64,000 nucleotides of DNA from Chrysomallon squamiferum (taxonomy: Eukaryota; Animalia; Mollusca): NCBI GenBank assembly GCA_012295275.1, contig CM022679.1, positions 26,784,001 through 26,848,000 on the forward strand, given 5' to 3'. The position numbers and the translations under genes are program-made. Below, in pieces: positions 6,398 through 8,295 of the stretch. Every line of letters starts with the position of its first letter. Positions within the stretch are counted from its first letter, which is position 1. The notes below the pieces were generated by a model that saw only the letters and a list, made by a program, of their open reading frames with translations, was not told the origin of the DNA and made no database searches.

Positions 6398-8295
6398 TGC
6401 CAGTGTATATATACATACATACTTAGAGATGTAGACACACAGACACACACACCCCATATACACATACAGTTATGCATACATATATACATACATATTAAGA
6501 GACATATCCACACACACACACACACACACACATACTCGCACAGATCTACAGTAAAAGGAACGTCACAACAACGTGGGATGAAAATGGTTATGAATAATAA
6601 TCATAAAAATTGTTTATGTGGAAAATTTACTGAAGTACATACTATGCTGATCCATTTTATTTTGTGCTATGAATTACAGACTTGTAACTCATTAGTTTAC
6701 ATCGTATAACTGTTCTTTCATAATCTTGTGTGCCTGTCATTCAGTAGCCATTGCCTTCACCTGATTTCATTATGAAACTAAAATGATTTCACTTCAGGTC
6801 ACAATAACATATTTGTCCTGATGGTTTCTGGAATTGGTAAAAATCCAAAGGAGAAAATTATACTTAATTCTGATATTGATAGAATGAAAGAAATTCTGGA
6901 GGATAAACATATCATTGGTGTCAGGTAAACTTTCTTTTTATTATTGCTACTGCTTATCCAAAATCCTTGGTCACAAACCAAATCATAATGACAGTGTTCA
7001 TTCGTTACACTTCATGAATTTGCAAATCAGTTACTGGTTTCCCTTTACTAGGTTAAAAATAAAATAATCTACAAAGAAATGTAATGTGTAAGCATAAAAC
7101 AGCACATAATTGTGGTTGATTCGTTATGCACTTCTAAACTAAGAAAAACTGCCCAAAATTTGCAATGTTCTCTAGTCAAATAAAAACATTTAGAAATGGG
7201 TTTAGAGATATTTTATAGTTGTGGGTTTAGATAGATGTATCAGTGATATTAAATGCACATTACTGCACAATATAAATAAATATACTAATATATTTAATTA
7301 ATAAATTGTAAACATGTTTGACTTTTATCAAGTCAGATAACAAAATTGATAAATGGTATATTATTATTAAATAAACTCTTAATGTTTTATCACTGGGCAG
7401 TTTCTGTTAATAATGGACGCACATTTTTGATTTGCAGTTACTTGTATGCATTCATTAATCTGTAATAAAAATAATAATCAGTTTGTTAAAGAGAGCATTT
7501 GTCACATCATAAACACTTTCATTTGTTCAGTAAGAACTTTTTCATTTTTTGCTATTTTAGTCTGAATTAGTTGTTTATCATATATATTTTTATTATTTCC
7601 TTGTTTTTAAAAACTTTTTCAGTCCTGATAATATAACAGTGATCAGTGAAAAGGCTGATAAAAACAGTATTTTAAGTGCTGTTGATGAGATAAAGGAAAA
7701 AGTGGAAGGCCGGTTTGAAAGTCTTTTCATATTTTACTATACCGGACACCACAATATGGAAAGGGAATTTTTAACTGACGAACAGAAAAAATATCATCTA
7801 AAAGAAGAGGAACTGAAAGATCATTTCCGACAACTGAATGCCACATACATGTTGTTCATACTGGACACTTGTTATAGTGGGGGTGCTGACATTGGTGCAA
7901 AGGGTGATTATCAAGACTACTCACCTCCCTGCCTTTGGGATGTTTTTGAGTCTGATTTGCAGGCAAAAGGAGAAAAGTCTGTCTGTGTTGTTCAATGGTC
8001 TTCATCAGCTGAAAACCAGGCGTCTTATTATGAAGGAGACCAGAGTGCTTTTACCTATGCAATCATCAGTCAGCTGAAAAATGAATGTGTCATTTCTTGT
8101 AAAGACTGTTTTTACTGTAATGGTTTTCACAAAAGTGCAAAACACAAGGGCTATATTGACCTTAAAGAACTACATGACTCTGTTGAGTATCATGTTAGGA
8201 AAATTAAGAGTGGAAAACAGCTACCAAAACTACATAAAAAACCAGAAGATGCATTTATCCCACCATTTGCATATTATGTTCATAAAGATATGTAA
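379..8295 (+). CDS. Gene A (5' truncated by window): IRAK/Pelle-like kinase C-terminal half + RING-like finger + metacaspase/paracaspase-like C14 protease
   Basis: GT-AG exons 379-543, 894-1108, 2843-2964, 3644-3766, 4233(or 4280)-4316, 4493-4618, 6798-6924, 7623-8295(TAA). Phases are compatible throughout if the 4280 acceptor is used; the 4233 acceptor gives an early stop. Motifs: [49 protein letters not shown], CxxC...CxxxCxxxCxxC...CPxH, FYYTGH, ILDTCYSG. Confidence 0.85.
894..1108 (+). CDS. Gene A kinase exon, catalytic loop to subdomain IX
   Basis: ccacag|a...gtgg|gtgagt, 215 nt; [51 protein letters not shown]...NDVFGLGV. Confidence 0.93.
2843..2964 (+). CDS. Gene A kinase exon, subdomain IX-X
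   Basis: tttcag|tt...gaa|gtaaga; continues DVFGLGV as VMLQLLLNKPA, matching the DVFSFGVVLLELLTGKPA consensus. Confidence 0.85.
3644..3766 (+). CDS. Gene A kinase exon, subdomain XI
   Basis: ttttcag|gct...cat|gtgagt, 123 nt, phase 0-0; DWPEELLKKFVNLACQAIAVADDRIT resembles the Pelle/RLK WP...LA..C......RP segment. Confidence 0.85.
4233..4316 (+). CDS. Gene A linker exon carrying the first CxxC of the RING-like finger (frameshifted from the 4233 acceptor, in frame from the 4280 acceptor)
   Basis: aaacag|gaa at 4232 gives ELLISASAELWKCPYS*; ccttacag|ttg at 4279 gives LTMCVSCFGQPI in phase with the next exon; donor g|gttagt at 4317. Confidence 0.65.
4493..4618 (+). CDS. Gene A RING-like Cys/His zinc-finger exon
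   Basis: tttcag|tg...attg|gtaaat, 126 nt, phase 1-1; KLKPLSPNCNENCTRFCVDCLSRSQENPLFCPQHGECQPPI. Confidence 0.8.
6798..6924 (+). CDS. Gene A C14 protease domain, first strand and helix
   Basis: cttcag|gt...gtcag|gtaaac, 127 nt, phase 1-2; NIFVLMVSGIG...LNSDIDRMKEIL matches the metacaspase ALLIGI...ND(A/V)xxM motif. Confidence 0.8.
7623..8295 (+). CDS. Gene A terminal exon: metacaspase/paracaspase-like peptidase C14 catalytic core
   Basis: ttttcag|t acceptor in phase with the previous exon; contains the 218-aa ORF. LFIFYYTGH (His codon 7747-7749), MLFILDTCYSG (Cys codon 7870-7872), VQWSSSAENQASY, SAFTYAI, IDLKELHDSVEYHV...QLP. AATAAA at 8321. Confidence 0.88.

Follow-up and report, generated by a model that had tools for sequence, protein, structure and literature searches.

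Gene organization at the locus

The DNA analysed here (the window) comprises 64,000 nucleotides of Chrysomallon squamiferum contig CM022679.1, and is AT-rich and microsatellite-rich. Its first part holds an intron-containing gene in forward orientation, the 5′ part of which precedes the window start, and the DED exon belonging to this copy lies outside the window. The original prediction had dealt with two exons of this gene, A and B, as though they encoded a stand-alone protease. This treatment could not be retained, as A and B are only the last two exons and are preceded by six more (379-4618) in the same reading frame, encoding a kinase and a Cys-rich finger. The metacaspase-like protease domain stands at the C-terminal end of the product of a spliced animal gene, which also codes for a kinase and a likely RING finger. 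The exons within the window are as follows:

379-543, + strand: kinase exon, subdomains V-VIa (55% identical to residues 904-952 of P0001, see below)
894-1108, + strand: kinase exon with the HRDVKASN catalytic loop and DPG replacing DFG (Pfam Pkinase, E 1e-15)
2843-2964, + strand: kinase exon, starting from the end of subdomain IX (splice edges; 55% identical to P0001 1036-1077)
3644-3766, + strand: kinase C-terminal exon (splice edges; 3′ end matched by RNA loose ends before 4233)
4233-4316, + strand: end of the kinase and start of the RING-like finger (one base missing in the window)
4493-4618, + strand: RING-like Cys/His finger exon, C-x3-C-x3-C-x2-C-x10-C-P-x-H (GT..AG splice in two of two RNA runs)
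6798-6924, + strand: protease exon A, strand beta1 and helix alpha1, with an S1 Asp at 6872-6874
7623-8295, + strand: protease exon B (Pfam C14), with His at 7747-7749, an S1 Asp at 7864-7866 and Cys at 7870-7872
8086-8118, + strand: Cys insert characteristic of the family, C..CxxC, a predicted metal-binding site

Exon A has AG|GT edges, is entered in phase 1 and left in phase 2, and is phase-compatible with exon B, the TAA stop of which occupies 8293-8295. Following mapping, the eight exons were found to be colinear with Gigantopelta aegis LOC121378532 (P0001, 1504 aa), the sole match among longer proteins in word-index searches with single queries. A domain scan of P0001 gave the order CARD-DED-DED-kinase-C14, and the gene model was 43% identical to it over 598 columns. 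Phase-1 introns occur at the DED exon, the kinase-entry exons and the finger/protease boundary, an arrangement of module boundaries that would be compatible with exon shuffling.

Transcripts and the frame break at 4275

The assembled reading frame breaks at approximately position 4275, giving a stop at amino acid 225, ahead of the protease domain. One extra base behind 4275 was present in all four sequencing runs inspected (two RNA and two DNA, from two studies), hence the deletion in the window is most likely an assembly error, and a pseudogene reading of the locus was rejected on these grounds. Two contig sets additionally contained shorter pieces ending at 4275, and these may represent a rare null allele. 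A one-base deletion at this position would lead annotators to split or drop the gene. The RNA contigs spanned exons only, with 4316 joined to 4493 at GT..AG, and retained an intact frame; the gene is expressed as spliced RNA.

Four RNA loose ends were found behind 4618. Both X9 contigs entered a different exon and not exon A, whilst the X5 consensus of two contigs appeared by eye to be a letter-by-letter mix of this other exon and exon A, an indirect reading that would probably take one contig into the protease exon. Three of the four RNA contigs thus continued from the RING-like exon into an exon of the kinase-entry type. The latter resembled the kinase-entry exon at 34395 of the window in 22 of 30 bases (by eye), and was not found within the window at up to three mismatches. 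This path suggests either paralogues with repeated kinase-finger modules or back-splicing.

Distribution and domain architectures of the family

The original prediction had been accompanied by a proposal to survey the taxonomic distribution of the domain. HMMER searches over 1.84 billion representatives retrieved 151 matches at E ≤ 0.001, the top ten of which were all animal where named (nine of ten). A family of 57 members was delimited by taking a branch of 63 rows in the first tree and removing six bacterial proteins; it contains the window protein, 23 named members and 33 that are unnamed or for which the name was not looked up. The named members originated from Gigantopelta (3), Haliotis (6), Sinanodonta (1), Lingula (2), Owenia (2), Saccoglossus (2), Ptychodera (3), Glandiceps (1) and Branchiostoma (3), and so were distributed across five phyla comprising molluscs, a brachiopod, an annelid, hemichordates and amphioxus. 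The family records were annotated throughout as uncharacterised, hypothetical or unnamed. No vertebrate, insect, nematode, cnidarian or named sponge match occurred among the 57 rows, which is weak evidence of absence from those groups given that 33 rows are unnamed. A scan of metagenome contigs yielded no relative among 364 pattern matches.

A kinase preceded the protease domain in 20 of the 45 members scanned (two weakly), and the combination of DED, kinase and protease was observed in Gigantopelta, Lingula, Glandiceps and, below the cut-off, Owenia, representing four phyla. Other members carried Death, TIR, ankyrin or Roc-COR-CARD regions at their N-terminal front. Such a pattern, in which the sensor or adaptor ends change and the finger-protease core stays fixed, is typically seen in immune proteins that have undergone lineage-specific expansion. 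Outside the catalytic and S1 residues, members diverged to 20-40% identity.

There were several instances of atypical relatives. In two Haliotis asinina proteins (P0003 and P0004) the finger and protease were kept and the upstream kinase region was unrecognisable, with A20-like zinc fingers scoring weakly at the N-terminus of P0004. Three further proteins (P0043, P0058 and P0076) formed a separate C14 group outside the 57-member family; they have a comparable Cys insert, and their first strand is closer to that of metacaspases. P0076 was fused to a region resembling URGCP/very large GTPases.

The kinase and the RING-like finger

In the window copy the kinase keeps the D-x-K-x-x-N signature of the catalytic loop (HRDVKASN). 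Searches of the PDB identified plant receptor-like kinases (RLKs; E 7e-24) and IRAK4 (E 3e-16) as its best solved relatives, and the pairing of a death fold with a kinase is likewise a layout in common with the IRAK4/Pelle and plant RLK group. The family differs from this group in that DFG is replaced by D-[P/V/H/G/A]-[G/S], with DFG present in none of the 12 readable family kinases (15 aligned), and in that its kinase is followed by a finger and a protease.

The finger, of the form CxxC..CPxH, was found in 26 of 57 family members as against none of 154 other matches. RING E3 ligases have eight zinc ligands in C3HC4-type spacing; eight Cys/His columns are conserved in the family finger, with Cys as the fourth ligand and His in the final position. 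A profile of the family finger matched the RING of RNF4 at E 0.013, which is weak, and Pfam RING families were matched under their cut-off (E 0.03-0.3), each in two of 13 scanned members; Atlas searches gave no match for the finger. This Cys/His finger is likely a RING, albeit a weakly assigned one (E 0.013-0.03).

Predicted catalytic and specificity residues of the protease domain

Exon B matched Pfam Peptidase_C14 at E 5.5e-11 (43 bits; cut-off 21.4), and the motifs SDIDRM (exon A), FYYTGHH and ILDTCYSG could be read across the two exons. The paired His and DxCxSG pattern arose in none of 100,000 shuffles of the reading frame, compared to 219 for DxCxSG alone. Together with the splice edges, these results bear out the protease exons, the His-Cys dyad and the Asp motifs as first predicted. 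Among family members covering the respective columns, the catalytic His was kept in 55 of 55 and the Cys in 57 of 57; of the S1 residues, the Asp two positions ahead of the Cys was present in 56 of 57 and that of alpha1 in 44 of 45. This conservation is partly built in, as members were retrieved by a profile weighting those motifs. The available text of PMC4357240 describes the S1 pockets of TbMCA2 and MALT1 as lined by these Asp positions. Since both are conserved, the family protease is predicted to cut after Arg or Lys. No conserved acid on L5 corresponding to Glu500, the third S1 acid of MALT1, was found in the family alignment.

Several features set the family apart. Cys occupied the three columns of the insert in 49, 47 and 48 of 57 family rows, as opposed to 12, 5 and 5 of 154 others, and 46 of 57 members had a Trp on beta5; the insert, the Trp and the RING-like finger were absent from nearly all non-family matches. 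The linker following the catalytic Cys was 20-25 residues long in eight of 30 members, and 41 in the window copy.

The residue after the catalytic His was Gly in 18 of 55 family members, compared to 114 of 154 non-family matches. Excerpts of PMC4357240 present a Gly at this position as structurally conserved across all clan CD families, and this feature of clan membership is missing from the window copy, which has His. The GHH in place of GHG, from which activity had been considered uncertain, is no peculiarity of this copy, the residue varying family-wide; the scarcity of this Gly and the want of a conserved L5 acid both speak against activity. The domain could instead be a pseudoprotease or very weak protease, acting as a scaffold or decoy in the manner of c-FLIP and regulating the kinase or true caspases. 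The Gly is lost in 37 of 55 members, neighbouring sites have occasionally decayed (Asp to Asn in P0002, Gly to Glu in P0005) and the fused kinases are themselves deviant, none having DFG. We nonetheless consider this unlikely, as the His, the Cys and both S1 Asp residues were retained almost everywhere across the five phyla in spite of the low identity elsewhere.

Fold and relationship to other C14 peptidases

A structure was predicted from 82 sequences for the domain of the Gigantopelta orthologue rather than for the window protein itself (pLDDT 86.5, pTM 0.87). The model has a caspase-like, probably six-stranded core with a disordered linker after the Cys, at the place of the two additional strands of metacaspases, and its residues 140-187 are devoid of strands, at a pLDDT of about 50; an AlphaFold model built from three sequences was unusable (pLDDT 41). 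The top fold matches of the orthologue model all belonged to clan CD, in agreement with the caspase-haemoglobinase fold originally proposed. Metacaspase-4 (Z 20.7) and legumain (Z 20.6) were tied, such that the fold searches place the model in clan CD without ranking the families therein.

PDB searches with one or two sequences found nothing relevant. With a profile of 16 animal sequences, metacaspase-4 was matched at E 6e-9 and caspase-1 at E 0.007, whereas MALT1 was missing from the matches at E ≤ 10. At the sequence level the nearest proteins are metacaspases and bacterial C14B peptidases, rather than MALT1 or caspases, as the original prediction had it.

Metacaspases of C14B (MC4, 6w8s/6w8r; MC9, 8a53; Yca1, 4f6o; TbMCA2, 4af8) were the best PDB sequence matches and aligned with the family model at Z 19.5-20.7. 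They have in common with the family the Y[ST]GH and DxC motifs, the Asp residues of alpha1 and L4 and a Q-x-S on L5. The metacaspase label holds for the sequence, but not in the strict sense. Excerpts of PMC4357240 describe a four-Asp Ca2+ site in metacaspases; the family is without the DE-x-I-x-P-x-D or DD Ca2+ motif, the corresponding DE..P.D and DD positions of MC4 aligning to gaps or variable residues of its profile, and the sheet of the model probably has six strands rather than eight. In addition, the family carries the Cys insert, sits behind DED, kinase and finger modules and is animal, and the Cys at position -3 on alpha1 occurs in six of 45 members.

The bacterial orthocaspases and EACC1-associated caspases were matched through NF047832 (E 4e-10) and GSU0716 (3bij, Z 16.9), and all Atlas neighbours at 0.93-0.94 were bacterial C14 clusters. 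These proteins resemble the family in their multidomain conflict-system logic, and differ from it in scoring 39.6 versus 140 bits, far under the family cut-off, and in the introns of the family genes.

Tandem DEDs joined to a clan CD domain recall caspase-8 and -10. The S1 pocket of caspases (C14A) is given in the available part of PMC4357240 as basic, with Arg on L1, Gln on L4 and Arg on L5, alongside a QACxG motif, whereas in the family both alpha1 and the L4 position carry Asp, and the window copy reads DTCYSG. Kinase-prodomain caspases of single species, in Macrostomum and Eisenia, are placed within caspase trees in excerpts of PMC11463336, the Macrostomum kinase-caspase fusion branching among true caspases. 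These fusions are set apart from the family here by their description, and the supplements of that article could include family members.

MALT1 and the type 1 paracaspases resemble the family as animal C14B peptidases behind a death fold, with the S1 Asp pair and, likely, six strands. Type 1 paracaspases are built of a death domain, Ig1-2, the paracaspase domain and Ig3; they differ in that the family lacks Ig domains (in P0001 and the scanned members) and the counterpart of Glu500, carries a kinase and a RING-like finger, and has DxCY where excerpts of PMC5756287 give DxCR as the paracaspase motif; the residue following DxC is Tyr in the window and Arg in one of 57 members, the family motif being DxC[Y/F/H]. 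The family could represent a highly diverged, type 2-like paracaspase lineage kept by bilaterians, with an ancestry in common with MALT1 and not with metacaspases or a separate acquisition from bacteria. Consistent with this are the six-stranded core and disordered post-Cys linker of the model, a linker that in the eight members noted above is too short for the two extra strands of metacaspases, the alignment of MALT1 at Z 17.2 (rmsd 3.6), and the portrayal of paracaspases as a repeatedly evolved metacaspase sub-class in the part of PMC5978004 available. The profile, however, found plant metacaspases and no MALT1, the DxCR motif and Ig domains are wanting, and the same source describes type 2 paracaspases as domain-only and non-bilaterian. 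We regard such an ancestry as improbable, somewhat more so than loss of activity.

Phylogeny and origin

Prior to tree inference, 12 of 223 rows (isoforms and fragments) were removed, and the mixture-model trees used 68 and 54 of the remaining 211; the trees took in no caspase, paracaspase or verified eukaryotic metacaspase. In the mixture-model tree of full segments (54 rows, 220 columns), 30 family rows fell on one side with an SH-aLRT of 76, weakly supporting monophyly of the family, and the window protein was placed in a gastropod group with a support of 98. An earlier FastTree analysis of half-length segments had nested six bacterial T9SS-type proteins among the gastropods, a placement that vanished with full segments and the mixture model and was discarded. 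An approximately unbiased (AU) test of the grouping of gastropods with these six proteins did not reject it (p-AU 0.37).

The bacterial-type clade in question (P0018, P0031, P0040, P0057, P0073 and P0113) scored unusually well against the gastropod profile. Its members have C14/C13-like domains, with a T9SS C-terminal sorting domain in the three that were scanned, and lack both the Cys insert and the finger. P0180, a C14 protein recorded as Gossypium arboreum, covered 38% of the aligned columns and branched among bacterial-type matches, and could not serve to represent plant metacaspases.

A single origin preceding the protostome-deuterostome split is favoured by the architecture that members have in common more than by the tree, and the family likely dates to the ancestor of these lineages. 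The best reading is that of an old bilaterian C14B lineage and not a recent transfer. The domain may have come from an inherited eukaryotic metacaspase, from a paracaspase or by an ancient bacterial transfer, and a single bacterial origin preceding the bilaterians would be compatible with this reading. Of the two options originally offered, an overlooked ancient lineage has thus gained from the presence of the family in five phyla and from the tree, and a recent horizontal acquisition is not supported, given the same domain order in lophotrochozoans and deuterostomes, an intron inside the domain and intermediate GC3 values. Gain from bacteria in the gastropod line, or repeatedly in each phylum with a kinase fusion every time, would accord with the bacterial nature of the nearest non-family matches, the patchy distribution and the AU result, yet is highly improbable in light of the finger-protease junction, Cys insert, non-DFG kinase and DED-kinase-protease order found in mollusc, brachiopod, annelid and hemichordate, the departure of the T9SS proteins from the family once segments were full-length, and the host-like GC3 (0.29-0.30 for the protease, 0.26 for the DED exon and 0.34 for the kinase exons).

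Proposed function

On balance we favour, with somewhat better than even confidence, a role for this old C14B lineage in inducible immune or cell-death signalling, in which the protease domain forms part of a death-fold-recruited kinase/finger/protease and is predicted to cleave after Arg or Lys. By analogy with DED biology, the tandem DEDs (or the Death, TIR, ankyrin or Roc-COR-CARD regions of other members) would draw the protein onto an oligomeric sensor platform, where clustering may switch on the kinase and gather the protease domains. Proximity activation as in MALT1 and caspase-8 appears likelier than activation by calcium, given the missing Ca2+ motif and the probable six-stranded sheet. 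The protease is predicted to cleave after a basic residue, in itself or in regulators of the pathway, as MALT1 does, and the RING-like finger might recruit an E2 or scaffold ubiquitin signalling.

A more far-reaching version, which we consider somewhat less likely than not, is that the family constitutes a third bilaterian clan CD lineage beside caspases and MALT1. It would be a metacaspase-like, Arg/Lys-specific enzyme joined to tandem DEDs, an IRAK-like kinase and a RING E3, act as a one-chain ripoptosome or Myddosome in a caspase-independent immune or death pathway, and have persisted and multiplied in marine invertebrates, with apparent loss from vertebrates, flies and nematodes.

The available portions of PMC4357240, PMC5756287 and PMC5978004 hold metacaspases to be absent from animals and bilaterians to have typically one type 1 paracaspase, and an excerpt of PMC3196919 reports seven 'unknown' caspase genes in amphioxus. 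Full-text literature searches, to the scope of which most subscription journals were external, found no description of the family or of the fusion (further literature, consulted in part: PMC11121540, PMC7836458, PMC8195603, PMC3417536, PMC2575513). The locus holds a real, expressed gene for a C14B protease variant with an architecture that was not found in print. The picture of absence from animals would have to be redrawn to include a conserved metacaspase-like family in five phyla, coupled to DEDs, a kinase and a probable E3, and the question of caspase and paracaspase origins would gain a lineage. Caspase-independent proteolytic signalling in invertebrates, molluscs among them, would also become open to experiment, the protease domain being small and directly assayable.

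Tandem paralogues and duplicated segments

The window was found to carry the kinase region in tandem, two further copies being located beyond the first:

33304-39135, + strand: tandem paralogue 2, with a DED-DED exon (33304-33837), kinase-entry exons from 34395 and kinase exons to 39135
60503-64000, + strand: tandem paralogue 3, with kinase-entry and kinase exons, truncated at the end of the window

No protease exon was seen in paralogue 2, the similarity of which to the first copy ends beside a gap of 200 N (40783-40982), right before the next exon would be expected. This paralogue has several repeated kinase-entry exons, one of which has an AA acceptor at 36431, and DPR rather than DPG. A lone kinase-entry exon remnant lies at 24081-24263, with no DED or later kinase exons nearby. 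Between the gene copies, 11829-23538 and 42080-52705 form a large, non-coding segmental duplication, the pieces of which are about 78-94% identical, and 8484-9584 is duplicated at 11154-12166.
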